NCBI GenBank assembly: GCA_002305165.1
Contig: DBQI01000065.1
Coordinates: forward strand, 16,794 to 80,793
Length of the DNA: 64,000 nucleotides
From: Armatimonadetes bacterium UBA1398
GTDB taxonomy: Bacteria > Armatimonadota > Zipacnadia > UBA1398
Direction of reading: 5' to 3'
Shown: positions 4,835 through 32,621 of the stretch, piece by piece
How the letters are laid out: every line of letters starts with the position of its first letter
Position numbering within the stretch: the stretch's first letter is position 1
Made by a program: the position numbers and the translations under genes
The notes under the pieces: model-generated
The model's input: the letters and a program-made list of their open reading frames with translations, nothing else
Told to the model about the DNA's origin: nothing
Database searches by the model: none

Positions 4835-6043
4835 GTGCGTCGTTCTCTTCCCAACCTGGTTCGTGTGTTCGGGATTGTCTGGTGCGGTCTCACTCTTCTC
4901 TGCCATTCCGCATCGGCTGCGCCCGAGCCCGAGAAGCAGGATGTCACCCTCAACGAGGTCATCGCCAGCCCCTCCCACTACCGGGACGCCGATATGTCGC
5001 TTGAGGGACTGGTGGGCGATGCACGGCTTGCCCGGGGTCCCGAAGGTCGCACGTGTTCCTTCGCCCTGGTCAGTCCTAACAGCAATATGGGCCTCGCCAT
5101 ACTAGGCGCTGACGCGCCGGAAACAGGCCTGTACGTGCGTGTGGAGGGTCCTCTGCGGCTCGATCCGCGGCTGAACACCCCGTACATCGAGTCACCCCGG
5201 GTAACTGTCCTCCACGAGCTGCCCCTGTGGCTGCGTCCCGCTGACCATCAGAGCCTTGCCGCCCTCGGCGCCATCCTGTGCGCCATGGCCGCATGCCTTC
5301 TCCTCGTCAGCATCCGCCGACCCTCCAGCGTGGCGCCGTCTCCAGAGCGCTTCAGTGCTCTGATCTCGACCGCCGTCTTGCCTCCGCGCGCTGAGACCCC
5401 GGCCCCGGCGACCGTCGCCGAGTACGTCGCGCCCGCCCCGGACACCTCGATCGGTGACGAGGGTTGCGAGCCGGGAGCATCTGACGACGATACGCCACTA
5501 ACGGGGGAGACCGTGTCCTTGGATCCGGAAGCTCTGGTGGCCGGGTCCGAGGGGCCGGCTCCATCCGGTCCTGCGGAGGGCGTGCCGGCCCGGGAAACCT
5601 CGACCGGTGACGAGAGTCCTGAGCCGACAGCATCGAGCGATGCGGCGCCCACGGCGGAGGCCGAGTCCGAAGAGCCCCCGACTGTGCCCGATGGGGACGC
5701 GTCCGTACCCATCGTCGGTATGGTACTGGAGGTCGTCGCGGGACCCGACCGGGGCAGGGTTTTCGAGGCGCGTGGCCCTAGAGTCACGATCGGCCGTTCG
5801 GAGGATCGCGACGTGCCCTTGACCGACGAGTTGGTCGCGCGCCATCAGGCGACCCTTACGCGCTCCAATGGGGTGGTGCTGCTCAGCTCTGAGGTTCCGG
5901 GCGCCGTAGTGTGTCTCAACTCCCGCCCGGTGCGCCAAGCGGAGATCGCGGCCCATGATGTCATTCGCATGGGATGCTCCGAGCTGCGCCTGATCGCCTC
6001 GCCATCAGCAGCGGAGCTAGGCCCTTCGGTACCCGCGCAATGA
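4835..6043 (+). CDS. membrane-anchored FHA domain protein (signal peptide, periplasmic domain, TM helix, acidic/Pro-rich linker, C-terminal FHA)
   Basis: C-terminal FHA signature RVTIGRSEDRDVPLTDELVARHQATL...NSRPV; internal hydrophobic helix LAALGAILCAMAACLLLVSI; stop overlaps next start (ATGA). Confidence 0.65.
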   Translation: MRRSLPNLVRVFGIVWCGLTLLCHSASAAPEPEKQDVTLNEVIASPSHYRDADMSLEGLVGDARLARGPEGRTCSFALVSPNSNMGLAILGADAPETGLYVRVEGPLRLDPRLNTPYIESPRVTVLHELPLWLRPADHQSLAALGAILCAMAACLLLVSIRRPSSVAPSPERFSALISTAVLPPRAETPAPATVAEYVAPAPDTSIGDEGCEPGASDDDTPLTGETVSLDPEALVAGSEGPAPSGPAEGVPARETSTGDESPEPTASSDAAPTAEAESEEPPTVPDGDASVPIVGMVLEVVAGPDRGRVFEARGPRVTIGRSEDRDVPLTDELVARHQATLTRSNGVVLLSSEVPGAVVCLNSRPVRQAEIAAHDVIRMGCSELRLIASPSAAELGPSVPAQ

Positions 6044-7275
6044 GCGATGACGTCCAGACCACTCCCGCCGAGGTCCCTGCCCTACCTGCCACACGCCCGG
6101 TGCGCGTTGGGTGCGCGGCGGCGCAGCCGGATGGGCTTGACCCCTGCCAAGCCGCCGTCGTCTGCGAGTGTCCCGCCGGAGGCGAGGTCCACTACGCCGC
6201 TGCGGCCTGCGTCATCGATGGCTCCCTCTCCCAGTCCAGAGGTGACATCGCGGCCTCCCTAGTTGCAGACCAGCTTGAGTCGGCACTCCAGTCTGGGCGA
6301 GCCCCCACCATTGGGGCGGGATTGGTGATGGCTCTGCACGATGCCGCAGAGGCCTTGAAGCGCCGCGCTAAGCTGCCTCACGACCCCGCGGACCTGAAGT
6401 GCAGTGCTGGTGTCGCGGTGCTGGATGACGGCAACTGGACCTTCGTTGAGGTCGGCGGCGCCCATGTGTTCCTGGAGCGAGGCCGGGCCGTCGGTCCGGT
6501 CTTCCGACAGGGACAGGCTGCCGATCCTCCTCTAGGCGATGAGGACTCCGCGCCCAGAGTCACGACGGCACGCGCTCTCCCGGGTGATCAGGCGCTGCTG
6601 CTGGGTGGCTACACCGCGGGCAGTCTCGACCTCGCCCGAGCTGCCCAGTCTCTCCGAGCTGCGCCCGATCTTGGGGAGGGCTGCAAGGCACTCGCCCGGG
6701 AGGCCCTCTCGACCCACCACACACCCCAGGCTCTGGCGTCCATCGTCCTGGATCGTCGGCCGCGTCGAGCACGATCTGTCGTGTTCCCCCTGCTATTCTC
6801 ACTCGCTTTCGTGGTGGCGGCCCTCGGGTTCGCCTTCCTTGCCTGGACGGGAGGACCGACGAGACCGATCATCCCGCCCGAGGCGCGAAGTGCGAACCTG
6901 CTGCCCATCGCTGAGGAACCCCAAGGCGCCGGCGTCGATGTCGGCGGGGCTCCCGGCCTGGTGGATATCGATCTCCCCGACGTCGAGGCCGTGCCGCGCG
7001 ATTCAGGCCGCGTCAAGGTGATCGGCGAGCCCGGACTCTGTTTCGAGGTCCTCGACCTGGCAACGGGCGAGTCCGTGTTGGAGGGCGAGATCCGCGAGGG
7101 ACAGGACTCCTACATCAGCCAGGGCATTCCCGCTCCAGGTCAATACTCTGTGACGGTATGGGAGTCGGCAGAGAAGAAGGAGGCCCGCATGGAGGGGCTC
7201 GAGTTCCATCTGGAACGGGACGCAATCAGGATTGTCGATTCCCGCAGAGGACACGAGCACGAGCCAGCGCGATAG
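6040..7275 (+). CDS. PP2C-like (possibly degenerate) membrane protein with extracytoplasmic C-terminal domain
   Basis: Start set at ATG 6040 overlapping the FHA stop. N-terminal region shows PP2C-like blocks (HYAAAACVIDGSLSQSRGD, AGVAVLDDGNWTFVEVGGAHVF, GDQALLLGGYTAG); TM helix VVFPLLFSLAFVVAALGFAFLAW. Confidence 0.5.
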   Translation: MSDDVQTTPAEVPALPATRPVRVGCAAAQPDGLDPCQAAVVCECPAGGEVHYAAAACVIDGSLSQSRGDIAASLVADQLESALQSGRAPTIGAGLVMALHDAAEALKRRAKLPHDPADLKCSAGVAVLDDGNWTFVEVGGAHVFLERGRAVGPVFRQGQAADPPLGDEDSAPRVTTARALPGDQALLLGGYTAGSLDLARAAQSLRAAPDLGEGCKALAREALSTHHTPQALASIVLDRRPRRARSVVFPLLFSLAFVVAALGFAFLAWTGGPTRPIIPPEARSANLLPIAEEPQGAGVDVGGAPGLVDIDLPDVEAVPRDSGRVKVIGEPGLCFEVLDLATGESVLEGEIREGQDSYISQGIPAPGQYSVTVWESAEKKEARMEGLEFHLERDAIRIVDSRRGHEHEPAR

Positions 7276-17177: not shown

Positions 17178-19298
17178 CTATGGGAGGCCGAGGTCACGCA
17201 GAGGCTTCAGCGCCGCCTCGGCCCGCTCGTCTTGCCCCAGCGAGCGGTAACACTCCGCCAAACGCAGTCGTTCTTCCTTCTCCGCGGGAGGAACACGGAA
17301 GGCGAACGCCTGCTCGAAAGCCTCGATGGCGCCTCGGGCGTCGCCCGCCTCGTAGAGGGCGTTCCCGAGGGCTTTGTTCAGAGGTCCCAGCACCGTGATG
17401 TCCCAGACGCGCCGCCGGTGTCGTTCGAGGAGCCGCGCTGCCGACTCGGGCTGGCCCAGCGCGCGGCGGATTCGCGACTCCTGGATCACAAGCCTGTCGT
17501 GATGCGGCGCGATCTCCCGACCGAGAGTGATGAGCCCGAAGGCCCCCCACGGATCGCCATAGAGGAGCCGCTCGTCGCTCAGTTCCAGCAGTGGCGCCAT
17601 CGCCATCTCGCGGACGCCACGGTCCGTTGGGTGCTCCGCCATGCACCACCGCGCCCAAGCGAGACACTCCCGGACCAGCGCCTCATATGTGGCGGGGTCC
17701 TCCTCGGCCAGATTCACGGGATGGGCGGTGACTTGGCTGACCCAGCCTCGTGTCTCAAGGTGCGCCCCGGCCGCCTCGTACCAACGCGCCCCCGCGGAGA
17801 ACACCCCGCCAGCCCGCACTGCCAGGCTAGCCAGGTGGCGCTCGCGCTCCAGGAAGACCTGCTGGAAGGACCCCTCGACCTCTTCCTGGCTGGCGCCCAT
17901 CCACTCCTGCACGTAGCGGTACGAGTTGTCATCCAGTTCGGGGGCGAGCCAGACCCGTTGCTCGGTGCTCTGCTCCACATTGCGGCAGTAGTAGAGCGGG
18001 AAGATCCGATGGTCGCCGACGACATGCTCATCACCGCAGATGAGATCCGTTGCGGGATTGCCTAACGCGGCGATAGCCCGGTCGGCGTAGTAAGCGGCCA
18101 TCCACTCGGTGCTCCGATCCACCTCCCTGTAAGTGCGCGGCGTCTCGGCGAGCAGCCAGGCCAGAAGGACTGACAGGATGATCGCCACCGCCTTCCTCCC
18201 CCGCTCCTGGGCATCACCGAGGAGGAAGGCGATCCCGTGCAGGCCGGCCCCCGCCAGCCCAACTATCCCGAGGTAGGCGGGGATGAAGAACACCTCCTGG
18301 TCCATCGCCGTGTAGTTCCAGAAGAAGCCGAGGGAGGCCACCGCTAGCCACGCGAAAGGCGCCAGGCGCGTCCCCGCCGGACGCCACCCCACGACGTACC
18401 CGCCGAGGGCAAGCGCCCAGACGGGAAGCGACAGCTCCGCTGCTAGGCGGTGCCAGTCTCCCCTGAGCATCGTCCCCCAGAGAGGCGGCTGGGCGCCCCA
18501 CATGAACCGGCGGTAGGGGCCTGCTGAGATGGTGAACTTGAAGTCAGCCCAGGTCTTCGGCTTCGCCCAGCAGTACGCGGCTCCCTGATCCAGGTGGGGC
18601 CACGCCCCAGCCCGCAGCGGGAGATGCAGCCATACCAACTGAGACAGCAGGTACCCGCCCACGAAGGCTCCCAGCACGCTCCATCTCAGCCATAGGCGTC
18701 GAGGCTGTCCGATGAACAACGGCAGCAGCCCCAGTTGAAGGAGCGCGTTGAAGGGCCGGTGGGTGACGGCGAGCCCCAGGAGCAGTCCCAGCCCCAGCGC
18801 CCACCACCAGCGCACCGCTTGGCCCGCTTCCAGCCCTCTCCGCATCCGCAGCGCCCCCGCCAGCCCTGCCGTCAGGAGGGCTATGTCGAGGGTGTACACC
18901 TCGGTCAGGGTGGCCTGGTCCCAGACTACAGGGGTCAGGCAGAAGGCCCACGTGAGGAGCAGGGCGGTGACGTCGTGGCGGACCAGCTCGCGTAGTGAGA
19001 TGAACAGGAATAGGCCCGCGAAGCCCAGCCAGATGGCTGAGAGCAGGTTGGCGCTCGCCGCCAGGGAGGCGAGGGGCACGACCTGGCTCCAGCCCCAGGT
19101 CAGGAGCACCCACAATGGGTAGCCGGGCGCATGGGCGATGCCTCGCTGCCCCACGGCGGACAGCAGTTCGCCCGCGTCCCCGAAGGTGATCGATGGCGCC
19201 ACGGTCCAGACCACTACTGCCAGCACACCGAGGGACGAGAGAGCGCCACATACCGGGCAGCTTACGGCGGCGAGGTTAGTGGTCAGGGGACGCTGCAT
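17178..19298 (-). CDS. DUF2723-like multi-pass membrane protein (putative GT-C/PMT-like glycosyltransferase) with C-terminal TPR-like repeats
   Basis: 706 aa; N-terminal about 400 aa of hydrophobic helices with FGDAGELL motif; soluble C-terminal helical repeat region. Confidence 0.55.
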   Translation of the reverse strand: MQRPLTTNLAAVSCPVCGALSSLGVLAVVVWTVAPSITFGDAGELLSAVGQRGIAHAPGYPLWVLLTWGWSQVVPLASLAASANLLSAIWLGFAGLFLFISLRELVRHDVTALLLTWAFCLTPVVWDQATLTEVYTLDIALLTAGLAGALRMRRGLEAGQAVRWWWALGLGLLLGLAVTHRPFNALLQLGLLPLFIGQPRRLWLRWSVLGAFVGGYLLSQLVWLHLPLRAGAWPHLDQGAAYCWAKPKTWADFKFTISAGPYRRFMWGAQPPLWGTMLRGDWHRLAAELSLPVWALALGGYVVGWRPAGTRLAPFAWLAVASLGFFWNYTAMDQEVFFIPAYLGIVGLAGAGLHGIAFLLGDAQERGRKAVAIILSVLLAWLLAETPRTYREVDRSTEWMAAYYADRAIAALGNPATDLICGDEHVVGDHRIFPLYYCRNVEQSTEQRVWLAPELDDNSYRYVQEWMGASQEEVEGSFQQVFLERERHLASLAVRAGGVFSAGARWYEAAGAHLETRGWVSQVTAHPVNLAEEDPATYEALVRECLAWARWCMAEHPTDRGVREMAMAPLLELSDERLLYGDPWGAFGLITLGREIAPHHDRLVIQESRIRRALGQPESAARLLERHRRRVWDITVLGPLNKALGNALYEAGDARGAIEAFEQAFAFRVPPAEKEERLRLAECYRSLGQDERAEAALKPLRDLGLP

Positions 19299-22951: not shown

Positions 22952-23992
22952 CTACTCGCTCACGACGCAGCGAAAGCCCGTCAACGGCATATAGCGTGCG
23001 ACCAAGTCGGGCTCTACATACCCTCTGAAGGGGATCATGGCAAACTGGGGGTTATTCGACGCCTCGGTCGCTCCGTACGAGCCGCCCCGAAGGATCAGGC
23101 GCTCGGGGTGCCCGGTCCACATGCCGAGGACCCACTCCCGCACGTTGCCCGCCATGTCGAACACGCCGTAGGGCGACTCGTCGCGCTCATAACTCATCAC
23201 GGGCCGAGGCTCGCCAACGAGGGTACCCGTGTTCGCGTCTCCCTGCTCGAAGCGGTCCCCCCAGGGGAAGAGTCGGGCGTCCGCATCGCCACGCGCAGCC
23301 TTCTCCCACTGATCCTCCGTTGGCAGCCTCTTCCGCGCCCAGCGCGCGTAGGCGTCGGCATCGCTGAGGGTGACGTGGGTCACCGGGTCATCCTCACGGC
23401 CGGCCGGGGGCGCGTTTCCCCCCCAGTGCGACGGCGGCTCGTAGCCGGTCTCCTCAACGAACGCGGCGTACTGCCTGTTCGTCACCTCGTGAACGTCGAT
23501 CCAGAAGCCTGGTAGCTCCACCCGACGGGTGGGGTTCATGTCCTGAGCCCGGGGGTCTTGGTAGTCGGCGGGGTAGCCCGCCTCGAACGGCCCTGCGGGC
23601 ACCCAGACCATGACCGCGCCATCGGGCGTCGCCACCGCGAAGCCCGGGTCCATGATCTGCGCCTCTTGGTCGGGCAGGGGGATCGCGCCTACTGGGAGGG
23701 GGTGCGGTGTGATGAGCCGCACCGGCCGCACCACGGCCGTTTCGCCCTCCACCAGTTCAACCTCGCGGGTGGCCTCGTTGTACGCCTCCATGCTGAGTGT
23801 GAGGGTTACCGTTCGCCTCTCGGCGCCCTGGAGATCGATGTCCCTCTGGAGCGGCGTGTTGCCGATCTCCTCGCCATCCAGCGTCACGAGGGCGCCTGGC
23901 GGGATGGACTCGACCTCCAGACGCGCCGAAGCCACGGCGGGCGCCGATACCAGAACGACCGCCAGCCAGAGGAGGCCGTGATGGAGTCGCAT
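22952..23992 (-). CDS. secreted PEGA domain plus FGE-sulfatase-fold (SUMF1/EgtB/PvdO family) protein
   Basis: Start set at ATG 23992 (AGGAGG 8 nt upstream; track starts at GTG 24001). PEGA-like LEVESIPPGALVTLDGEEIGNTPL; FGE-like WVPAGPF..., RVELPGFWIDVHEVTNRQY, LRGGSYG, GFRCV. Confidence 0.65.
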   Translation of the reverse strand: MRLHHGLLWLAVVLVSAPAVASARLEVESIPPGALVTLDGEEIGNTPLQRDIDLQGAERRTVTLTLSMEAYNEATREVELVEGETAVVRPVRLITPHPLPVGAIPLPDQEAQIMDPGFAVATPDGAVMVWVPAGPFEAGYPADYQDPRAQDMNPTRRVELPGFWIDVHEVTNRQYAAFVEETGYEPPSHWGGNAPPAGREDDPVTHVTLSDADAYARWARKRLPTEDQWEKAARGDADARLFPWGDRFEQGDANTGTLVGEPRPVMSYERDESPYGVFDMAGNVREWVLGMWTGHPERLILRGGSYGATEASNNPQFAMIPFRGYVEPDLVARYMPLTGFRCVVSE

Positions 23993-24045
23993 TGCCTCCA
24001 CCTCCTATCTCTAGCCTCTCAGACGCGGCGACGACCCGGTTGGCT

Positions 24046-24588
24046 TCATTCCTTGTCCGTGGGGCCGCTCGGGACGCCTGGAACGCTCCTCGGGGAGCGG
24101 AACTCCTGGCTGAACTGGGACTCCAGCGCGGCCTTGCTCTGGGCAACGGTGGAGGCCGCGCGGTTCACCTCTTGCTCGATGCGCGCGAAGAGAGCCGCGC
24201 TCCAAGCCTGAATGTCCGCCCGACGGGACGCAGCCTCGTGTTCAGCGCTCCGAACGATCTCGTCCGCGCGCTGCTTGGCCGCGTGAACGACCGCCTCTTG
24301 CGAGAGCATCTCCTCGACCTGCTCACGGGCCTCACGGAGCTCCTGACCGGCCGCCGCGTGGGCCTGATCGATGATATCGCGCGCCTGCTCCTGGGCTTGC
24401 CGCAGGATGCGGTCTCTCTCCGACGTGATCTCCGCGGCCTCCGCGATGGATCGGGGCAGGTCATGCCGGATGGCGTTGATGAGGCGGTGGAAGTCCTCCT
24501 CGCTCACATACCGTCGCCCGAACCACGGCACGGAGGAGCCACCCTCGATCAGGTCCTCAAGCTCATTCAGAAGTCGATCAATGTCCAT
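24046..24588 (-). CDS. hypothetical coiled-coil protein
   Basis: 180-aa Glu/Arg/Ala-rich helical protein, 12 nt downstream of coaD on the same strand; no catalytic motif recognised. Confidence 0.4.
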   Translation of the reverse strand: MDIDRLLNELEDLIEGGSSVPWFGRRYVSEEDFHRLINAIRHDLPRSIAEAAEITSERDRILRQAQEQARDIIDQAHAAAGQELREAREQVEEMLSQEAVVHAAKQRADEIVRSAEHEAASRRADIQAWSAALFARIEQEVNRAASTVAQSKAALESQFSQEFRSPRSVPGVPSGPTDKE

Positions 24589-24600
24589 GGAGATATCTCC

Positions 24601-25083
24601 TCACTCGCCGAGCAGTCGCGCTCGAAGCCGCTCTTCCACTCCCGGCGGAACGAGCCCCGTCACGCTTCCCCCCAACTGGACGACCTCGCGAATGGCGCTC
24701 GAACTCAAGAAGGCGTACGCGACATCGGTGGGGATGAACAGCGTGTCGATCCCGCTATCCAGGAACCGGTTCGTGTGCGCCTGCAGGAACTCGTTCTCGA
24801 AATCCGAGACCGCTCGAAGGCCTTTGATGATCACCTGGGCGCCCATGCGGCGCGCGTGCTCCACCAGCAAGCCCGAGAAGGACTCGACACGAACATTGGG
24901 GAGATCGGCGCAAGCACTGGCCAGCATCTCCGCCCGCTCCTCGATTGAGAACAACGGCTCCTTCTGCGGATTGCGCACGACGGAGGCGACGACCTCGTCG
25001 AAGATGCGGGCCCCTCGACCGATGATATCGAGGTGCCCGTTCGTCACGGGATCGAAGCTGCCGGGGTAGAGAGCCCGGGCCAC
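24601..25083 (-). CDS. coaD: phosphopantetheine adenylyltransferase
   Basis: N-terminal YPGSFDPVTNGHLDII nucleotidyltransferase motif; 160 aa; follows rsmD. Confidence 0.85.
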   Translation of the reverse strand: MARALYPGSFDPVTNGHLDIIGRGARIFDEVVASVVRNPQKEPLFSIEERAEMLASACADLPNVRVESFSGLLVEHARRMGAQVIIKGLRAVSDFENEFLQAHTNRFLDSGIDTLFIPTDVAYAFLSSSAIREVVQLGGSVTGLVPPGVEERLRARLLGE

Positions 25084-25099
25084 GATGGATCACTCCCGC

Positions 25100-25693
25100 C
25101 TAAGCCGTGCCTCGGGTATCCGCCTGCGGCTCCGAAGCGACGCGCTCGAATATGGCCACGTGAGCGCGCCCATACCGCCTGGCACGCAGACAATGGTAAA
25201 TGTTCAGAGGGGGAACGGGCATGTCCTCTCCATCCGCCTCGAACACGACCCGCCCGCCGGGGGCGATCCGGTCCGCCCGAACGCCCAGCGCTTCCGCGAT
25301 CGCGGCCAACACATCGGAGCCATAGGGCGGATCGGCGAATACCAGGTCGTAAGGAGCTATGGGCGCGCTCGCCAGCAGCCATGCCGCCGCATCGGCGCGG
25401 TGCACCGCCGACCGGTCCGTGAGGCCCAGAGCCTCTAGGTTCCCGCGGATGGCCGCGCAGGCCGGTGCCGCGCGGTCGACCAGATCAACCCACCCAGCCC
25501 CGCGGCTAAGTGCCTCTATACCCATCGCTCCGCTACCGGCGCAGAGGTCCAGCGCCCGGCAATGAGGCGGCAGCGGGCCAAGCATGTTGAAGATCGCCTC
25601 GCGCGTCCGATCGGAGGTCGGACGCGTGTCCTCGCCCCGAGGCGCACGGAGTGTACGACCTCGGTGGAATCCACCCACCACGCGTATCGGCAT
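25100..25693 (-). CDS. rsmD: 16S rRNA (guanine966-N2)-methyltransferase
   Basis: Start at internal ATG (M46 of track ORF 25100..25828); MLGP...LDLCAGSGAMGIEALSRGA SAM-binding and DLVFADPPYG motifs. Confidence 0.75.
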   Translation of the reverse strand: MPIRVVGGFHRGRTLRAPRGEDTRPTSDRTREAIFNMLGPLPPHCRALDLCAGSGAMGIEALSRGAGWVDLVDRAAPACAAIRGNLEALGLTDRSAVHRADAAAWLLASAPIAPYDLVFADPPYGSDVLAAIAEALGVRADRIAPGGRVVFEADGEDMPVPPLNIYHCLRARRYGRAHVAIFERVASEPQADTRGTA

Positions 25694-25830
25694 GAACGAC
25701 CCCCTGACGCGCCCGAGTGTAATCCAACCGCGGCCGCGGCGCCAACGACGGGCACGCTCGACTGAACCGCAGCCGGTGGGCTCTTGTTGACATTGGTAGG
25801 TCATTGCGGTTGGATTGCGAATGGACACGA

Positions 25831-25842
25831 GTGCTATAGCAC
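25831..25842. promoter_or_regulatory. 12-bp perfect palindrome GTGCTATAGCAC in divergent intergenic region
   Basis: Self-complementary 12-mer between the rsmD start (25693, minus) and the secreted protein start (25894, plus). Confidence 0.25.
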
Positions 25843-25893
25843 CGGACTAGCGCTTCCGGTGCCTTCTGTTGTGACAGTGGGGAGGGCCTCCTG

Positions 25894-27252
25894 ATGATGC
25901 GCAACCGATGGGCAGCGACGGCTGTGGCGTTGCTGCTGCTGAGCACTGCGGCTCTGGCCGCGGCGACGCCGGATCTGGAGGGCTGGGTCGAGACCGATCG
26001 CGCCAGCTATCGAGTGGGCGAGCCGGTCCGCGTCGCTTTCTGCATCCGAAACAACGGCCCCGAGGATGTCGACCTTGTGGTCGCCGGTCCCGAGGCACAG
26101 CTCCGCGTAGGAGCTCTGGGCGTTCTGGAGACCCCGAGCCGCTCTGCGGACCGGCCGGAGGAGATCCTTATTCGCCGTGGCGAGACGACCGTCTACCGGT
26201 TCGACATCGACCCTTCGGACCTGGACATTCCCGCTGGTACTCATCAGATCGTCGGCGCCCTGCAGCCTCTGGTGGGCGCGCCTATCCAGGCTGTCGGCCA
26301 GTTCGTAGTCTGCCAGCTGCCTGACTACCTCAAGGTCGCCGACGTGCTCGCGGCTCCCCATGTGTGGGCCGACGGCGATGTCGTCGAGCTCCGCGGCGAG
26401 TACCGCGGCAACCGCGCCCGCCCCTTCCGCCCCCTCGACGGTGTCGAGGCGCCCTGGGCCACGGACTGGATCCTGGGCGACGAGACGGGCGAGATCTACA
26501 TCCACAACGCCCCCTCCAAGGAGCACTACAACGACTGGACCTGGCACATCGACGACCCGTATGTTGCCCCGAAGACCGACGTGGGGACCATTTCCTCGCC
26601 CGTGCTCCTCTACAACCCGCCCGAGGTGGGCGATAAGGCCGAGTTCCTCCACCCCGAATGGACCTACGGCAAGCGCGTCATCGTTCGCGGCCACGTCATC
26701 ACCCATGACAGCGGCCTCGTCACCGTCGCTCCGGTGGAGATCTTCAAGTGGCAGACAGACCGAGGCGCCTTCTGCGTGCTCGAGACCGAAGGACCGCCGC
26801 AGACCGAGGCGGGCCCCAGCCAGATGCTCCTGCGGATGATCGTCAAGAACGACACCGCGTTCCCACTCATCCTCGCCCACGCGAGCGGCTTCAGATACGA
26901 CTTCGTTGTCGAGCGCGACGGCGAGGAGGTGTGGCGCTGGTCCCGGCATCAGGGCATGTCCGAGGGGCTCTCCTGGATGACCGTGAGCGACGACTCGTGG
27001 AAGCCTGGCCCGAACTCACCACTCGTCGACCGCTCGGTGACCACTGTGACGCCCCATGAGGGGAACCGCGCCTCGGGCCGGAGCACCGTGCCACCCGACA
27101 ACGCCCTGGTCTACACCGCGTACTGGCCCCTGGTGGACAATGATGGCCGGCCCGTTGAGCCGGGCGTCTACCAGATCTCCGGCTTCATCAGCCACCGCGT
27201 GTTCACCTATCCCGTTCCTGTCGTCGTTGGGCATGCGGCTGCCCTGCCCTAG
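25894..27252 (+). CDS. secreted protein with BsuPI-like (intracellular proteinase inhibitor-like) beta-sandwich domain
   Basis: ATG with GGGGAGGG 7 nt upstream; signal peptide; C-terminal segment ASGFRYDFVVERDGEEVWRWSRHQG resembles BsuPI. Confidence 0.45.
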   Translation: MMRNRWAATAVALLLLSTAALAAATPDLEGWVETDRASYRVGEPVRVAFCIRNNGPEDVDLVVAGPEAQLRVGALGVLETPSRSADRPEEILIRRGETTVYRFDIDPSDLDIPAGTHQIVGALQPLVGAPIQAVGQFVVCQLPDYLKVADVLAAPHVWADGDVVELRGEYRGNRARPFRPLDGVEAPWATDWILGDETGEIYIHNAPSKEHYNDWTWHIDDPYVAPKTDVGTISSPVLLYNPPEVGDKAEFLHPEWTYGKRVIVRGHVITHDSGLVTVAPVEIFKWQTDRGAFCVLETEGPPQTEAGPSQMLLRMIVKNDTAFPLILAHASGFRYDFVVERDGEEVWRWSRHQGMSEGLSWMTVSDDSWKPGPNSPLVDRSVTTVTPHEGNRASGRSTVPPDNALVYTAYWPLVDNDGRPVEPGVYQISGFISHRVFTYPVPVVVGHAAALP

Positions 27253-27381
27253 CTGGTCGCGGCTCGAGGGGAGGATTCCCCACGGACCGATACAAGATGC
27301 CGATAGCGGGTGGACCCGTCCTCTGGCGCGGGTGCCGTCCTGGTTCGCTTCGTCTGGCGAAGACTTGGGGCGTCTGATCCA

Positions 27382-29253
27382 ATGAGTGAAGAGCGCGAAG
27401 TGCTCAAACGGGTAGCGGATGGGCGCAGCGACCCGGGCATCCTGGCCCGAGAGGCTGGCCGTGCGGACGAGGACTCCCTGTGCATCCGGGAGTTCGACGG
27501 AGACCGAGGCGCCCTCTATGCGGTCGCCGACGGGCTGAGCGGCAGGAACGCCGGCAGCGTCGCTAGCGCCCAGGCGGTTGGCCTGCTCGAGGAGGCTTTG
27601 GAGGCGTACGCCCGCCACGGCGAGGCGCTCCTCCAGCAGCTCGGTCCGGCCCTCCCCGACCTCAGGGCCTACATCGACTACGTCGCCGTGCGGATCGACG
27701 CCCAGTTGCGCGCCAACGCCGAGGCGAATCCCAGCCTGGCGGGGATGGCGACGAGCCTTACGGCGGCCTACGTGGATGGCCGGGACCTCCTCATCGCCCA
27801 TGTCGGCGACTCCCGCGCCTACCGCGCCCGCGCCACGGAGTCTGGGCTGCAGCAGCTCACCATCGACGATGCCCCCGTGGATGACGAGGAGTTCGATCCC
27901 CCTCCCTCCAAGGCCCTGGGCGACGCCGACGAGCAGCCACTGCGCATCGATCAGTACCGCGCGGAGGATGGAGACATCCTCCTGCTTTGCACTGACGGGC
28001 TGTGGCGCGAGGTCGACTGTGCGCTCATGGAACGCATCCTGAAGGGGTCCCCGCGCCCCTCGATGGCCGTCGAGAGGCTCATCCGCGCGGGGAACCAGGC
28101 TGGCGGACGTGGCAACATGGCCGCCGTCGTCGTTCACATCGGCGAGGTTGACCTGACCGACGACGAGGCCCTGGATTCGGCCTTCCCCGTCGGCGGCGCC
28201 GCCCCCAAGCAGGCTCCCGTGGAGCCCCCCGCAGAGACGCAACCAGAGCCCGAGCCCGAACCGCCGGTGGAGGAGCCTGCCGCCGAGGCCCCCGAGAACA
28301 CGCCCCCCCCGGAGGAGCCGGCCATTGAGGAGCCGGCCCCCGAGGCTACCGAGGAGGCCCCGAGGGAGGAGCCGGGACCGGTCATACCGGGTCCGCCAGC
28401 AGGTGGCTATGCGGCCGTCCCCGAGGTCGTGGGCCGGGCAACCTACCCGCGCCCCGCGGAGATACCCGACGACGCCCTGCGTCCCCGGCGCGAGACGGCG
28501 GCGGGCGAGGCTAGGTCCAGCGACTCGGCCCTGTTCCTCCTGGGGCTTGTGTCGGGCATCGCCTTCATGCTCGTCATCGGCGGCATTTTCTGGGGCCTTA
28601 AGGCGTGGGCCGGGAAGCCCACCGAAGCGCCGCGAGCCACTGCCACGAGCACCGATCACGTCGACTATGAGGAGATTGTGACCCATCCCGTCAGCTTCTG
28701 GGCCAAGCCTCTGGGGCCGGGGGGGCGGCCGTGCATGATCCTCACCAAGAGTCTCCACGAGGAGACGGGCGAGGAGTCGTGGGAGGAACTGCCTCGCCTT
28801 CAGGGCAATGAGAGCGGCCCATCGGGCTCTGTCAGCCTCTTCCGCCAGGGCGACGCGCTTCACATGTTCCTGGATGTGCAGTTCATCGCGTCCGAGGCCG
28901 GCCTGCCACGCGACTGCCTGCTCTCCCTCAAGGTCATGCCCGACGAGGGCAACCGGACCCAGACCGTCATCACCGCGGGCCCTGACGCCGGCGAGCAGCG
29001 GGACGGGCACATCGAGGTCATCAGCATCCGCCCCGGGAGCGTGAGCCTGGTACCACAGGATCCCGACGAGCGGCTGATCGCGGGCGGCAAGGCCGAGGCG
29101 ACGATGGGCGGCCAAGTCAACGCGTCGGGCTATTACGTGCAGCACTTCGACAAGGTGCCCTTGGGCACGTACCTCGCCAAGAAGGGCAGCAGCGAGCGGA
29201 TCGTCGAGATCACGGCCGCCAAGCGACGGGTGACAGTCACCTTCACCGAGTGA
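27382..29253 (+). CDS. membrane-anchored PP2C-family Ser/Thr protein phosphatase with extracytoplasmic C-terminal domain
   Basis: Start at ATG 27382 (internal to track ORF 27310..29253). PP2C motifs LYAVADGLSG, GMATSLTAAYV, AHVGDSRAY, LLLCTDGLW; Pro/Glu-rich linker; TM helix LFLLGLVSGIAFMLVIGGIFWGL. Confidence 0.75.
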   Translation: MSEEREVLKRVADGRSDPGILAREAGRADEDSLCIREFDGDRGALYAVADGLSGRNAGSVASAQAVGLLEEALEAYARHGEALLQQLGPALPDLRAYIDYVAVRIDAQLRANAEANPSLAGMATSLTAAYVDGRDLLIAHVGDSRAYRARATESGLQQLTIDDAPVDDEEFDPPPSKALGDADEQPLRIDQYRAEDGDILLLCTDGLWREVDCALMERILKGSPRPSMAVERLIRAGNQAGGRGNMAAVVVHIGEVDLTDDEALDSAFPVGGAAPKQAPVEPPAETQPEPEPEPPVEEPAAEAPENTPPPEEPAIEEPAPEATEEAPREEPGPVIPGPPAGGYAAVPEVVGRATYPRPAEIPDDALRPRRETAAGEARSSDSALFLLGLVSGIAFMLVIGGIFWGLKAWAGKPTEAPRATATSTDHVDYEEIVTHPVSFWAKPLGPGGRPCMILTKSLHEETGEESWEELPRLQGNESGPSGSVSLFRQGDALHMFLDVQFIASEAGLPRDCLLSLKVMPDEGNRTQTVITAGPDAGEQRDGHIEVISIRPGSVSLVPQDPDERLIAGGKAEATMGGQVNASGYYVQHFDKVPLGTYLAKKGSSERIVEITAAKRRVTVTFTE

Positions 29254-30556
29254 CGAGCCAGCCGTCGCCGGATTCCGGCGCCGCCAGTCGCCCCAAGCGC
29301 TCCAGGGGCGGCATGGCGGCGAGGGCCGACAGGGCCCCATCGATGCCAACCCGAGGCGCCAGCGCGTCGGTGGCCTGCCGGCTCATCCAGACACGGTGGA
29401 ACAGCGTGTAGCAGCCCTCGGCGTGGAACTCGCCGAGCGGCCAGACGCCACGGGCCGCGATGACCCTGCCGCCGCCCACGTCCAGGGCGTAGAAGATGAG
29501 CTCATCGTCGCTGAAACCGGCGCTGAAAGCGCTTCCATAGGGGTTGGAGGCGGCGAGAACCACCTCCGCCCCGGAGTCCTCGATCCGGCTCCGCACCTCG
29601 TCCTCCAGGGCCCCGGCGCCCGGGGCAGCCCGCTCAGGCGGTGGGCCGACGAAGACGCGGATCGCCTCACTGAGCGCCCCATCCGCGCCGCTACCGCCAG
29701 GCCCGCGCAGGATCAGATACCCATCCTGGCGCTGACCGGCGGCGTCCCGCACCACCTCAGCCGTCCAGTCGGCGGGCATCCACAGCGTCACCTGCGCCCC
29801 CGGCACCCCAGCCGGTCGCCAAGCGGCCGAGGACCCGGTAGGCTCTCGGCCCCCCAGGGCGACCTGGAGCGGCAGTTCGAGGTCGAGGAGGCCGGCGGCC
29901 TGGCGTGCCGCAGCGGCCCACGGCGGGTCCGCCGGGCCATTCGGCGAGTCGAACTGGCCTGCCACGGTGGCAGCGAGTCGGGCGCTACGGGCGAGCAGAC
30001 GCTCGCCGTCCGGCATCTCGAGGATGCGCCGCCCAGCCACCATAAGGCGCTCGGGGCTCACGGGCTCCTCCAGAGCGATGGACACCCCGAAACCGGCCGC
30101 CTGGAGCCGCGCCGCCGCCCAGAGCAGATCGAGCACTCGGCGGCCGGTGATGGGCTCATCGCCGGGGAGGTCCAGAGGTTCCAGGCAGGCGCGGAAGCTC
30201 CGCAGCCACGCCCCCAGCGGTCCTGGGTCGCGTTCGCCGGAGGTCTCCAGGGCCTGCCGCACGGTGTCCTGGGCGCCGGCCGAGTCGGCGGAGCCGCTGC
30301 CGGCGAGGCGCTGCACCGAGTCCACAAGCGCCGCAAGGTCATTCCGGGACTCCGGCCGCCGGTTCCACTCGTCGTCGACGGCGAGCCGCAGGCTCTGCAT
30401 CTCACGCGGCCCAAGGCGCTCGCCGTAGGCGAACTGCACCAGGGAGGCCACCGCCGGCGCGATGCCCTCGGGCGGCCCCTGCGCCTCGACGGTCTGGATA
30501 AGGGCCATCAGCAGGGCCCCGAGGGTGGCCGAGCGGCGGATGGCACGCGCCGTCAC
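29243..30556 (-). CDS. hypothetical secreted protein
   Basis: 437 aa with signal peptide MTARAIRRSATLGALLMALIQTVEAQG; preferred over antisense ORF 29396..30739 on composition; 3' end overlaps the PP2C 3' end by 11 nt. Confidence 0.4.
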   Translation of the reverse strand: MTARAIRRSATLGALLMALIQTVEAQGPPEGIAPAVASLVQFAYGERLGPREMQSLRLAVDDEWNRRPESRNDLAALVDSVQRLAGSGSADSAGAQDTVRQALETSGERDPGPLGAWLRSFRACLEPLDLPGDEPITGRRVLDLLWAAARLQAAGFGVSIALEEPVSPERLMVAGRRILEMPDGERLLARSARLAATVAGQFDSPNGPADPPWAAAARQAAGLLDLELPLQVALGGREPTGSSAAWRPAGVPGAQVTLWMPADWTAEVVRDAAGQRQDGYLILRGPGGSGADGALSEAIRVFVGPPPERAAPGAGALEDEVRSRIEDSGAEVVLAASNPYGSAFSAGFSDDELIFYALDVGGGRVIAARGVWPLGEFHAEGCYTLFHRVWMSRQATDALAPRVGIDGALSALAAMPPLERLGRLAAPESGDGWLVTR

Positions 30557-30999
30557 GGCCTGGGCAACCTTCCGAAGGCCCGCAGGATGGTCGCATGGAG
30601 CCGGTGGACCCCCAGGGCGCCAGGCATCGTGAGCAGGGGGCAGCGTTCCTCGATGACCTCCAGGCCGCGCTCCCGGGCCAGCCGCGCCGCCGCGCCGCTG
30701 TCGCCCCGCGTGTCGATCCAGACGCGCTTCACGCCATGATCGGCGAGGTCGGCGATCGCCGCCTCCGCCGACGCCGGCTCGATGACGAGCAGCGCGGCTT
30801 CGGGCGTGGAGTCCAGGGCGTCGAGGGACACAGCCACCGGCTCTCCCTTGAGCGTGCCGCCGCGCGTGTCGACGACGTGGACGGTCTTGCCCTGACTGCG
30901 CAGGGTCCGCACAAACTCGGGGATCAACCAGCGTCCCTTGGCCAGCGCGCCGTACACGACGAACTCGCGAACATCCCAGAAGCTGTACTCCAGGGGCAT
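30553..30999 (-). CDS. CoA-binding domain protein (YccU-like)
   Basis: 148 aa; layout FVVYGAL...KGRW...GKTVHVVDTRG...VKRVWIDTRGDSGAAARLARERGLEVIEERCPL matches small CoA-binding Rossmann proteins. Confidence 0.55.
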   Translation of the reverse strand: MPLEYSFWDVREFVVYGALAKGRWLIPEFVRTLRSQGKTVHVVDTRGGTLKGEPVAVSLDALDSTPEAALLVIEPASAEAAIADLADHGVKRVWIDTRGDSGAAARLARERGLEVIEERCPLLTMPGALGVHRLHATILRAFGRLPRP

Positions 31000-31020
31000 C
31001 GGCGGCCTCCCCGGTCGACG

Positions 31021-31644
31021 TTAGCTGGCCGGAGTGCCCGCCCAGAGCGCGCCACGCTGGAGCATGGACGCGAAGACCTCGTGCCGGCAGGCCTTGGCGT
31101 CGTGGCCCAGGGCGAGGTAGAAGACGCGGCCCTGGCCCCAGCTCTTCGTCCAGGCGACGGGCATGGCCCCGCCCTTCCAGAGGGCGGAGGCGACGACGTG
31201 GACGCGCGGGTCGTAGTCGGTGATGTACTGCTCATCCTCGACCACGAACTCCTCGAGGCCCTTGGTGATGGGGTGCTCGGGGTCGGTCACGCTGACCTGG
31301 TACTGGCGGTAGGCCGGGTGGGTGATGAAGTAGCCGCCGACCATGGCTTGGTACTCCGGGCAGCCACGGAAGGAGTCGGCGGCCGAGTGGATGCCCACAT
31401 AGCCCTTGCCCCGGGCGAGCCACTCCAGGAGGCCGTTCTTCTGGGCCGTGGAGATCTCGCCGACGGTGTAGTAGAAGACGATCAGCTCGTAGGGGTCCAA
31501 GCCCGATTCGAGGACAGTGAGGTCTTCGTTGACCCGGGTGATGTCGAAGGCGCTGTCGGCACGGAGGATCTTCTCGATCTCGGCGCCACAGCCTTTCCAG
31601 TCGTGTATCTCTCCGCCGGTGAATAGAAGGGTCTTGATGGCCAC
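31021..31644 (-). CDS. ThuA-like (trehalose-utilisation, class I glutamine amidotransferase-like) protein
   Basis: Start at GTG 31644 (CTGGAGG RBS) inside track ORF 31021..31851, giving VAIKTLLFTGGEIHDWKGCG; upstream 69 codons are Arg-rich and unlikely coding. Confidence 0.55.
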   Translation of the reverse strand: MAIKTLLFTGGEIHDWKGCGAEIEKILRADSAFDITRVNEDLTVLESGLDPYELIVFYYTVGEISTAQKNGLLEWLARGKGYVGIHSAADSFRGCPEYQAMVGGYFITHPAYRQYQVSVTDPEHPITKGLEEFVVEDEQYITDYDPRVHVVASALWKGGAMPVAWTKSWGQGRVFYLALGHDAKACRHEVFASMLQRGALWAGTPAS

Positions 31645-31831
31645 GGTGGGCGCCTCCAGGGGGTGAGTTGGGAGTGACGCCGACGGCCGCGCACCCCGTC
31701 GACACAGGAGCCTTCGTCGGGGAGCGCCCCGCCACCTGCCGCGGATTGGCCGCCCACGGCCTCTCCTCGTACACAGAGAAGGCGCGCTCATGGGAGCGCG
31801 CCCCACGGCCCTGGGCGGTTGCCCTGCGAGG

Positions 31832-31993
31832 TTACGGAGCGGCGACAACACCGGTCGTGTTGTCGTATATCCAGTCCTCGTTCGTCACCCGCACTCCGCA
31901 CCCGAACCCAGCGGGGGGGGGGGCGAGCATGGCAATGACGACGATCATGATCTCGATGAGCGTGACCCCCTGGTGCCTCGGCGCTGCTCTCAC
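31832..31993 (-). CDS. short prepilin-like peptide (N-terminal methylation-motif helix only)
   Basis: Hand translation: GTG 31993 with GGAGGG RBS, 53 codons, QGVTLIEIMIVVIAMLAPPPAGFGCG...; below the ORF-track length cutoff; contains a C11 tract. Confidence 0.35.
   Translation of the reverse strand: MRAAPRHQGVTLIEIMIVVIAMLAPPPAGFGCGVRVTNEDWIYDNTTGVVAAP
31913..31923. repeat. G11 homopolymer (C11 on coding strand) inside the short pilin-like ORF
   Basis: Eleven consecutive G read directly in the plus strand; encodes PPP in the minus-strand ORF. Confidence 0.8.
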
Positions 31994-32031
31994 TGCTGTC
32001 CCTCCCTCACCAGAGGGCAGCGTATCCCGGG

Positions 32032-32451
32032 CTACGGCGCTGTGTGCTTCGACCAGAGAGCATCAGTGCGGTCAGCGTCTACAACGTGGTTCTCGCAGTA
32101 GGCTTCTCCCGCATGATCGCTCGTATCATCGTCCTCGATCACGTAGGTGGCTTGGCACCAGGGACACAGCGGCGTCTTGGTGCGGCCGAGGGAGGGCTTC
32201 TTGTGGTTGTCAGCAGTGTCAGTATCGGCAGCTATCACATCGTCGACGGACGTCGGCCACTTCCCCGTGTCGTTGTGGTACTTGACCGCGGCATACGTGA
32301 TCGCGGACGTATCAGTGACGTAGCGCGTGTGCTTCGCCCGGTCGCTCGCGTTACGGACGGCGAGGCCGACGATCAGGGCCAGAATCGCGACGATCAGGAC
32401 TATGATCATCATCTCAATGAGCGTGAAGCCTCTGCGATTGCTCTTCCTCAC
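32032..32451 (-). CDS. type IV pilin-like / pseudopilin (prepilin-type N-terminal cleavage/methylation domain)
   Basis: GTG start with GAGGAGG RBS; N-terminus RKSNRRGFTLIEMMIIVLIVAILALI; C-terminal domain with Cys pair. Confidence 0.7.
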   Translation of the reverse strand: MRKSNRRGFTLIEMMIIVLIVAILALIVGLAVRNASDRAKHTRYVTDTSAITYAAVKYHNDTGKWPTSVDDVIAADTDTADNHKKPSLGRTKTPLCPWCQATYVIEDDDTSDHAGEAYCENHVVDADRTDALWSKHTAP

Positions 32452-32621
32452 TTCCGGTACCTCCTCTTTCCCTCCCTACTCCCCATACGGCGTGTCAACT
32501 CTGTTCCCTACTCTCTATCGGTCCCCGGCTTCGAGGGTCCTATGCCACACCCCGGCATCGATCTCTCACGGCAAACGTATGAGTACGGTTCCTACGCGAT
32601 TTCTGTTTCGGGCGCTCGGCG

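Follow-up and report, generated by a model that had tools for sequence, protein, structure and literature searches.

A membrane PP2C-type protein with a fixed glycine at a metal-ligand position and its paired secreted BsuPI-like protein in the Armatimonadota

Background

Some membrane-bound PP2C-type phosphatases bear an ectodomain, among them PstP (Rv0018c) of Mycobacterium tuberculosis. The pstP gene is embedded in the operon FhaA/FhaB-RodA-PbpA-PknA-PknB. The present analysis concerns a membrane PP2C-type protein of Armatimonadetes bacterium UBA1398, encoded at 27382..29253 on the forward strand of a 64,000-nucleotide stretch (contig DBQI01000065.1, positions 16,794 to 80,793; hereafter referred to as the window, whose own numbering is used throughout), and the gene directly upstream of it on the same strand (gene A, 25894..27252), which encodes a secreted BsuPI-like partner protein, protein A. 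The Armatimonadota, to which this organism belongs, have few cultured members.

PstP consists of a 237-residue cytoplasmic PP2C domain, a juxtamembrane linker, one transmembrane (TM) helix and a 191-residue ectodomain (PMC3052367). The metals M1 and M2 are the minimum for activity of all known phosphatases of the PPM family, and the pseudophosphatases TAB1 and PHLPP2 keep a single metal, which is assigned to the M2 site (PMC12002173). BsuPI proteins are in many cases secreted, of multidomain build and found in association with the cell surface; in PMC3901451 their role as protease inhibitors is treated as uncertain, the inhibitor activity being disputed even for the founding member and the family having been removed from MEROPS.

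The A-PP2C cassette and its distribution

The core feature of the locus is a two-gene cassette, gene A followed by the PP2C gene, seen so far only in metagenome-assembled genomes (MAGs) of the Armatimonadia/Armatimonadota and in metagenome contigs. A search of 5.8 billion protein clusters for homologues of the PP2C protein returned 13 full-length-type clusters (536-646 residues, about 31-98% identity), beyond which the scores fall to 87 bits and below, the level of generic Stp1/PrpC proteins. The gene A family is as small, with 13 homologue clusters. All four matching contigs in the GTDB species-representative genomes belong to Armatimonadia/Armatimonadota MAGs, and the other members come from metagenome contigs.

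A homologue of gene A lies directly upstream of the PP2C gene, on the same strand, in 11 of the 11 distinct loci with enough sequence, as established from gene tables and tblastn (the window, L001/2, L003/4/8, L006, L007, L009, L010, L011, L012, L014/15 and L016, the L numbers denoting related loci). The sizes of the longest contigs also agree between the two families: at least seven A clusters match PP2C clusters in this respect (80124, 10948, 12845, 8699, 22065, 5415 and 3708), and three more (15055, 16686 and 11071) match contigs of the PP2C-bearing loci L006, L009 and L012. Thus, A and PP2C co-occur roughly one to one.

The pairing persists despite completely different flanking genes. In the near clade, to which the window belongs, the pair is preceded by an RsmD-CoaD-PEGA/FGE block and followed by CoA_binding_2 and ThuA genes; in L003 a ParA-like gene lies upstream and YggS-SepF-ProC-DivIVA genes lie downstream on the same strand; in L016 an aldo-keto reductase and an alcohol dehydrogenase gene are found upstream. 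The L003 surroundings hint weakly, and in one lineage only, at a connection with cell division or the envelope.

This strict pairing with a secreted protein built of binding modules is the main new fact of the analysis, and it suggests that A docks on, or works together with, the ectodomain of the PP2C protein. A rival explanation is an ordinary, fully active phosphatase of the PstP/Stp1 type: its ectodomain would only anchor or localise it in the envelope, and A would be an unrelated envelope protein, adjacent by ancestry. This explanation is considered unlikely. Inertia explains poorly an adjacency that survives complete turnover of the flanks in two families with matching, very small distributions. 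On the other side, terminator-like and promoter-like elements stand between A and PP2C in some loci, as would suit two genes that are merely neighbours.

Gene models and layout of the PP2C protein

An earlier note, prepared by a model from the DNA sequence, had placed three genes at this position, and all three are present as open reading frames (ORFs) with a coding pattern of GC content: gene A (452 residues), the PP2C gene (623 residues) and, on the minus strand, gene C (29243..30556, 437 residues), an orphan with a secreted-looking product. In a window of high GC content (about 68%), the GC content at third codon positions is 0.85-0.87 for the three genes, and its distribution over the codon positions is that of coding sequence. 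The start of the PP2C gene is settled as the ATG at 27382, because all 13 homologues in the family alignment begin at that position; an upstream GTG at 27310 was rejected as a start for the same reason. ORFs on the opposite strands, 27016..29349 (minus) and 29396..30739 (plus), were likewise rejected, on codon-position GC content and on the homologue support for the annotated frames.

The PP2C protein begins with a catalytic-type domain (residues 1-265; 27382..28176), delimited by Pfam, NCBIfam and alignment to PstP (1txo/2cm1) and tPphA (2j82) and predicted to be cytoplasmic. It is followed by a low-complexity juxtamembrane linker rich in Pro, Glu and Ala (residues 266-378; 28177..28515), the length of which varies across the family, by a TM helix (residues ~381-405; 28522..28596; LFLLGLVSGIAFMLVIGGIFWGL) and by an ectodomain of two beta-sandwiches (28672..29244; D1, residues 431-529, and D2, residues 542-621). 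The helix is the sole hydrophobic segment, with a Kyte-Doolittle maximum of 2.52 over 19 residues and no other segment above 1.5. An equivalent segment is found at the same place in 14 of 14 family members, all of which are devoid of a signal-like segment at the N-terminus; in the protein of the window the maximum over the first 60 windows of the N-terminus is 0.75. C-terminal of the helix follow 218 residues that include a folded, all-beta domain. Mean pairwise identity across the family is 0.53 in the catalytic domain, 0.26 in the linker and 0.28-0.31 in the ectodomain.

A receptor-type layout had been claimed for this protein in the earlier note, and the order of PP2C domain, Pro/Glu-rich linker, single TM helix and large C-terminal domain is indeed conserved family-wide. 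The hydropathy scan, with its single hydrophobic segment, indicates that the protein is not wholly cytoplasmic, and the predicted topology is N-in/C-out because no signal sequence precedes the 380-residue folded domain.

A model of the ectodomain built from a 13-sequence alignment has a mean predicted local distance difference test (pLDDT) score of 80 and is all-beta, with two sandwiches, of which D1 is family-specific and D2 resembles CnaB, SpaA and prealbumin domains. The D2 profile matches repeats in giant adhesin-like proteins, and the example that was checked (P0143) carries SpaA and Cna_B Pfam domains. A Foldseek search of the model against the PDB gave no match at E<=1e-3; the sequence of the ectodomain gave only chance-level matches in the PDB and none in Pfam. 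A full HMMER search of 1.84 billion representatives with the ectodomain profile found the complete two-domain ectodomain in only about 11 clusters, which comprise the PP2C family and one further protein, P0145. This metagenome protein of 572 residues starts with a signal-like segment, shows neither a PP2C domain nor any match in Pfam, and fits the full profile over its C-terminal residues 397-569 (E 5e-13); the ectodomain therefore exists outside the PP2C context too. The folds are generic CnaB/Ig-like (immunoglobulin-like) beta-sandwiches, a point in favour of an ordinary phosphatase with a mere anchor, as is the fact that the available part of PMC3052367 does not tie the PstP ectodomain to a ligand. 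The extracytoplasmic sensing proposed in the earlier note thus goes further than the models and profiles, in which no ligand-binding family is recognisable.

The active site and the fixed glycine of motif 11

By the Pfam gathering thresholds the protein belongs to the PPM/PP2C superfamily, with 47.8 bits against PP2C_2 (PF13672; E 1.6e-12, cutoff 24) and 26.5 bits against PP2C (PF00481; E 6.4e-06, cutoff 20.3), both over residues 29-208. Its score against the NCBIfam equivalog model for Stp1/IreP (NF033484) is 112.5 bits, below the cutoff of 230. Invariant throughout the family are D31 of the ED pair of motif 1 (PstP D25), D50-G51 of motif 2 (PstP D38-G39), D143 of GDSR (PstP D118) and D205 of CTDGLWRE (PstP D191), as well as an Arg of the phosphate-binding type and the complete ED pair. 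The M2-site ligands D31 and D50-G51 are thus present in 14 of 14 members.

The M1 site, whose ligands include the motif-8 and motif-11 aspartates, is incomplete: D205 is kept, whereas Gly244 (GGRGN, codon 28111..28113) stands at the motif-11 position occupied by Asp in GGxDN (PstP D229, PPM1A D282). Gly stands here in 15 out of 15 sequences of the family, two of which are distant and came up only with the ectodomain profile. Of 107 other PP2C hits, 103 have Asp, and the pattern used for the motif count did not fit the other four. The family is further set apart by a four-residue insertion in motif 1 between the conserved Arg and the ED pair, by DG[LV]xxR in motif 2 in place of DGMGGH, and by Asp106, which does not vary within the family, whereas Asn occupies this position in 95% of the other bacterial PP2C hits in the alignment.

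The same substitution has been made in PstP. In PMC3052367 (Sajid et al.), the D229G variant loses more than 90% of its activity on p-nitrophenyl phosphate and most of its activity towards PknB, yet keeps more than the D38G variant. Since motif 11 carries Gly family-wide while every other ligand is retained, the catalytic domain is probably an attenuated or altered-metal phosphatase and not a standard enzyme of the Stp1/PstP kind. The description of the protein as active-looking in the earlier note accordingly holds for most of the metal ligands and fails for motif 11.

The evidence from the active site bears on the ordinary phosphatase from both sides. Full activity would fit the invariance of all the other metal and phosphate motifs and a catalytic domain that is conserved above every other region of the protein, but a fully active enzyme would not be expected to carry, in all 15 members, the very change that disables PstP, or to score 112 bits where the Stp1 model asks for 230.

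The opposite explanation, a receptor-like pseudophosphatase that would serve as a phosphoserine/phosphothreonine-binding or scaffolding module in the manner of TAB1 or PHLPP2, with protein A as its co-receptor, appears improbable on present evidence but is a serious alternative to the attenuated enzyme. It would account for the family-wide loss of an M1-site ligand, given that PPM enzymes need both M1 and M2 and that TAB1 and PHLPP2 keep one metal, M2 (PMC12002173), and it would accommodate the insertion in motif 1 and the altered motif 2. However, a single ligand is missing here, while the M1-binding D50 and D205, the third-metal Asp143, the Arg and the ED pair are all invariant, a pattern of retention more typical of a working active site, and the D229G variant of PstP still acted to some extent on PknB, the natural substrate (PMC3052367). 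The conservation of the catalytic domain above all other parts, together with the retained ligands, also argues against a fully dead enzyme.

A more specific combination can be imagined, in which the D229G-like state is fixed in a receptor-like pseudo- or strongly attenuated PP2C that is controlled from outside by A docking on the ectodomain as a co-receptor. The cytoplasmic domain would then serve chiefly as a phosphothreonine-binding or scaffold domain tethered to the membrane, or be a phosphatase active only when a partner supplies the missing ligand. This is regarded as quite improbable; if true, it would amount to a trans-envelope signalling device, two-component-like in character, with no described bacterial counterpart so far.

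Domain organisation of protein A

Gene A agrees with the claim of the earlier note that a secreted BsuPI-like protein precedes the PP2C gene: the product has a classical signal-peptide-like N-terminus (residues 1 to ~24) and matches BsuPI (PF12690) at E 1.4e-12, above the Pfam threshold. The model of protein A (mean pLDDT 70) resolves three domains, namely an Ig/CARDB-like beta-sandwich (residues 28-140; 25975..26313), a probable YgiW-type OB fold (residues 147-290; 26332..26763) with a disordered insertion at residues 213-251, and an Ig-like domain of the IPI/BsuPI type (residues 292-445; 26767..27228), the fold of which is in keeping with the Pfam match. The N-terminal Ig/CARDB-like domain is missing from some orthologues. 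The OB-fold stretch has no sequence-level match to any Pfam family, and comparison of the protein A sequence with the PDB gave chance-level matches only. The most conserved motifs, GEYRG, TDWILGDETGEIY, NDT, EVWRWSRH, PPDN and SHRVFTYPV, are specific to the family.

The BsuPI match raises the question whether A might be an IPI-type protease inhibitor or decoy that controls proteolytic shedding of the PP2C ectodomain, in the form of a switch by regulated proteolysis, and not a ligand-binding co-receptor. This explanation is very unlikely: no protease gene is conserved near the A-PP2C pair in the related loci, the inhibitor role of BsuPI is itself disputed and the family was dropped by MEROPS (PMC3901451), and the conserved motifs TDWILGDETGEIY, EVWRWSRH and PPDN are family-specific and correspond to no known inhibitory loop.

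Proposed reading and its standing

The overall reading that is preferred here, with moderate confidence, is that of an envelope-coupled A/PP2C cassette with an attenuated or altered-metal phosphatase. Protein A would be exported by the Sec route as a chain of three beta-rich modules of the binding type (Ig/CARDB-like, YgiW-type OB and IPI/BsuPI). The PP2C protein would act on, or bind, proteins phosphorylated on Ser or Thr at the inner face of the membrane, and its ectodomain, by pairing with the secreted A in the cell envelope, would serve for docking or positioning. Through such pairing, the state of the envelope could be coupled to Ser/Thr phospho-signalling in the cytoplasm. Whereas the analysis shows the gene models and domain order, the motif-11 change throughout the family, the constant A-PP2C adjacency and the restricted distribution, the activity level and the substrates of the PP2C protein are inferred.

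Several points weigh against this reading. The interaction between A and the ectodomain is inferred from gene adjacency alone, and the ectodomain, its folds being generic, carries no recognisable ligand-binding signature in the models and profiles. The positive-inside rule gives no orientation signal, the charges on the two flanks of the PP2C helix being about equal. No kinase and no conserved FHA partner stands next to the A-PP2C pair in any related locus. The effect of Gly244 is extrapolated by analogy from PstP D229G, and Asp106 or Asn245 might compensate for the lost Asp. Co-transcription of A and PP2C is not assured, because the spacer between them measures 47-177 nt across the loci and because that of L003 (7824..8000) contains a strong hairpin followed by a T-run, resembling a terminator (CCCGGAGCGCTTAGTATGCTCCGGGTTTTATTTTT); in L003 the two genes may thus be transcribed separately though adjacent.

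In the window the spacer is 129 nt long (27253..27381). An ACAAGAT element at 27292..27298 is conserved in the otherwise variable spacers of the near clade (window, L010, L011/L012 and L014; four rows of the alignment, three of them distinct as L011 is identical to L012). It could be a promoter or other regulatory element of the PP2C gene. The scan for it covered ten loci and did not find it in the spacers of the distant L001, L006, L007, L009, L003 and L016. About 13 nt ahead of the PP2C ATG there is a run of four G residues (GGGG). A scan for promoters and terminators over 25000..32500 gave counts at or below those of shuffled sequence, with no candidate in the spacer between A and PP2C or in the 3' overlap described below.

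The constant secreted companion is a concrete candidate partner for an ectodomain-bearing PP2C, in a naturally simplified case. The fixed change from Asp to Gly at a metal ligand is a natural experiment on what can be dispensed with in the PPM active site, and the family could show whether bacteria, like eukaryotes, have evolved PP2C pseudoenzymes. The cassette also adds signalling content to the Armatimonadota. In practical terms its importance is modest as long as neither the interaction of the partners nor the altered catalysis finds confirmation.

Gene C and the convergent 3' overlap

The PP2C gene overlaps the convergent gene C by 11 nt at 29243..29253 (TCACCGAGTGA), as the earlier note had stated and as direct reading of the sequence bears out, the PP2C stop codon being at 29251..29253 and that of gene C at 29243..29245 on the minus strand. 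Gene C, also in accord with that note, is coding and secreted-looking, with homologues at the same position. They form three clusters, at 98, 49 and 46% identity, and occur only in a near sub-clade (L010, L012, L013 and L014/15, besides the window). Searches by sequence and profile in Pfam, NCBIfam and the PDB gave no match for gene C; the Pfam search was also run on all four family members at E<=5.

The three genes had been grouped together in the earlier note, and a single unit of A, PP2C and C can be conceived, in which the 3' overlap would couple PP2C and C through antisense or transcriptional interference. In the near sub-clade C is always tail-to-tail with PP2C, the 11-nt overlap recurs in L010, L013 and L014/15, and no terminator-like site is seen at the PP2C/C junction, all of which would suit such a unit. 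However, L012 has a 4-nt gap in place of the overlap, and L001, L006 and L003 keep the A-PP2C pair without gene C: in L001 and L006 the PP2C gene is directly convergent with CoA_binding_2 and ThuA genes, and in L003, where YggS follows PP2C, tblastn found no match to gene C. The GTG start of gene C overlaps the stop codon of the CoA_binding_2 gene at 30553..30556, and in L013 and L014 gene C follows ThuA after a gap of ~23 nt, so that gene C is the distal gene of a minus-strand ThuA/CoA-binding unit. The three-gene unit is therefore highly improbable; the linkage that stands is that of A and PP2C in 11 of 11 loci, with gene C a lineage-specific member of a neighbouring operon. The 3' overlap is ordinary tail-to-tail packing with that operon, incidental to the A-PP2C module.

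The CoA_binding_2 gene itself (30553..30999, minus strand; Pfam E 9e-15), which is syntenic in L001, L006 and L012, is part of the context and lies outside the PP2C module. The ThuA ORF that accompanies it (31021..31851, minus strand) has 276 residues from a GTG start, about 70 more than its homologues in L001, L010, L013 and L014 (207-209 residues), and translation probably begins further downstream than this GTG.

Other genes of the window

A second membrane-spanning pair in the window, at 4835..7275, had led the earlier note to count two membrane PP2C-type proteins. The gene at 4835..6043 encodes 402 residues with a signal-like N-terminus, an ectodomain of ~110 residues, a TM helix at residues 138-163, an acidic, Pro-containing linker and a C-terminal FHA domain. 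That at 5974..7275 encodes 433 residues with a PP2C_2-like N-terminal domain, a TM helix at residues 265-295 and a tail of ~135 residues. The FHA gene and the single TM helix of the second protein are thus confirmed, whereas its PP2C match is below threshold (20.6 bits, cutoff 24) and most of the catalytic motifs are missing: by eye, the ED pair, the Asp of GDSR, the motif-8 Asp and the DN motif are absent. That the pair is a paralogue of the A/PP2C pair, to which it is similar in layout, finds no support, as the hhalign E-values are 0.15 and 0.3. A cognate Hanks-type kinase, for which a search had been advised in the earlier note, was not found in a six-frame motif scan of the 64-kb window.

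Divergent from gene A lies a block of minus-strand genes (22952..25828) that comprises RsmD (25100..25828), CoaD (24601..25083), a 180-residue coiled-coil-like protein for which no family model scores above threshold (24046..24588) and, at 22952..24001, a secreted protein with PEGA and FGE-sulfatase domains. Synteny of the RsmD/CoaD/PEGA-FGE block extends to L001, L011 and L014 and, in part, to L012. Also on the minus strand and close to the locus are a type IV pilin-like or pseudopilin gene with an N_methyl motif (32032..32451) and a gene for a TMEM260-like O-mannosyltransferase/TPR protein (17178..19298), both of which have relatives close to the PP2C pair of L012 and of L014.

Comparison with known systems

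Among described proteins PstP is closest to the PP2C protein of the cassette. In both, a PP2C domain (~240-265 residues) that no signal peptide precedes is followed by a linker, one TM helix and a large C-terminal domain (~190-220 residues), and the PstP structures 1txo/2cm1 are the best PDB sequence matches of the protein (E 3e-12). They differ in the active site, where PstP has Asp229 and every member of the present family has Gly, where the family has a four-residue insertion in motif 1, and where its motif 2 reads DG[LV]xxR and not DGMGGH. The long Pro/Glu linker is not described for PstP in the available part of PMC3052367. The ectodomains are unrelated at the sequence level, that of the present family being confined to the ~11 clusters found with its full-length profile, and the FHA/kinase operon context of PstP is replaced by pairing with a dedicated gene for a secreted BsuPI/OB protein, with no adjacent kinase. 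Given the score below the equivalog threshold, the unrelated ectodomain and the different operon context, the protein is not an orthologue of PstP/Stp1, although its proposed mode of working is that of a membrane PP2C of the PstP type. It also lacks one of the catalytic features by which active PPM proteins are defined.

With the Stp1/IreP/PrpC proteins (NF033484) it has in common the catalytic fold and most of the motifs, namely RxD-G, ED, DG, GDSR and CxDG; canonical members, however, have GGxDN and no such ectodomain, and many of them are soluble or carry other C-terminal domains. TAB1 and PHLPP2 likewise combine the PP2C fold with an incomplete set of metal ligands conserved across a clade (PMC12002173), but they are eukaryotic and soluble and have lost several ligands, in contrast to the one M1 ligand lost here.

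Protein A departs from the known IPI/BsuPI proteins (PF12690; PDB 3isy) by its three domains (452 residues in all), one of them a probable OB fold, and by a long disordered stretch inserted into the BsuPI domain. No subtilisin gene is linked to gene A, and the architectures and contexts given in the available part of PMC3901451 do not include linkage to PP2C. From the periplasmic OB-fold proteins of the YgiW/BOF type (PDB 1nnx) it differs in that its probable OB fold is one domain among several and is interrupted by ~40 disordered residues.

Thus, membrane PP2C proteins with ectodomains, such as PstP, are already known, and what is new is a PP2C clade restricted to the Armatimonadia, with a fixed Gly in motif 11, an ectodomain of two beta-sandwiches in tandem and, as its dedicated partner, a secreted BsuPI/OB protein.

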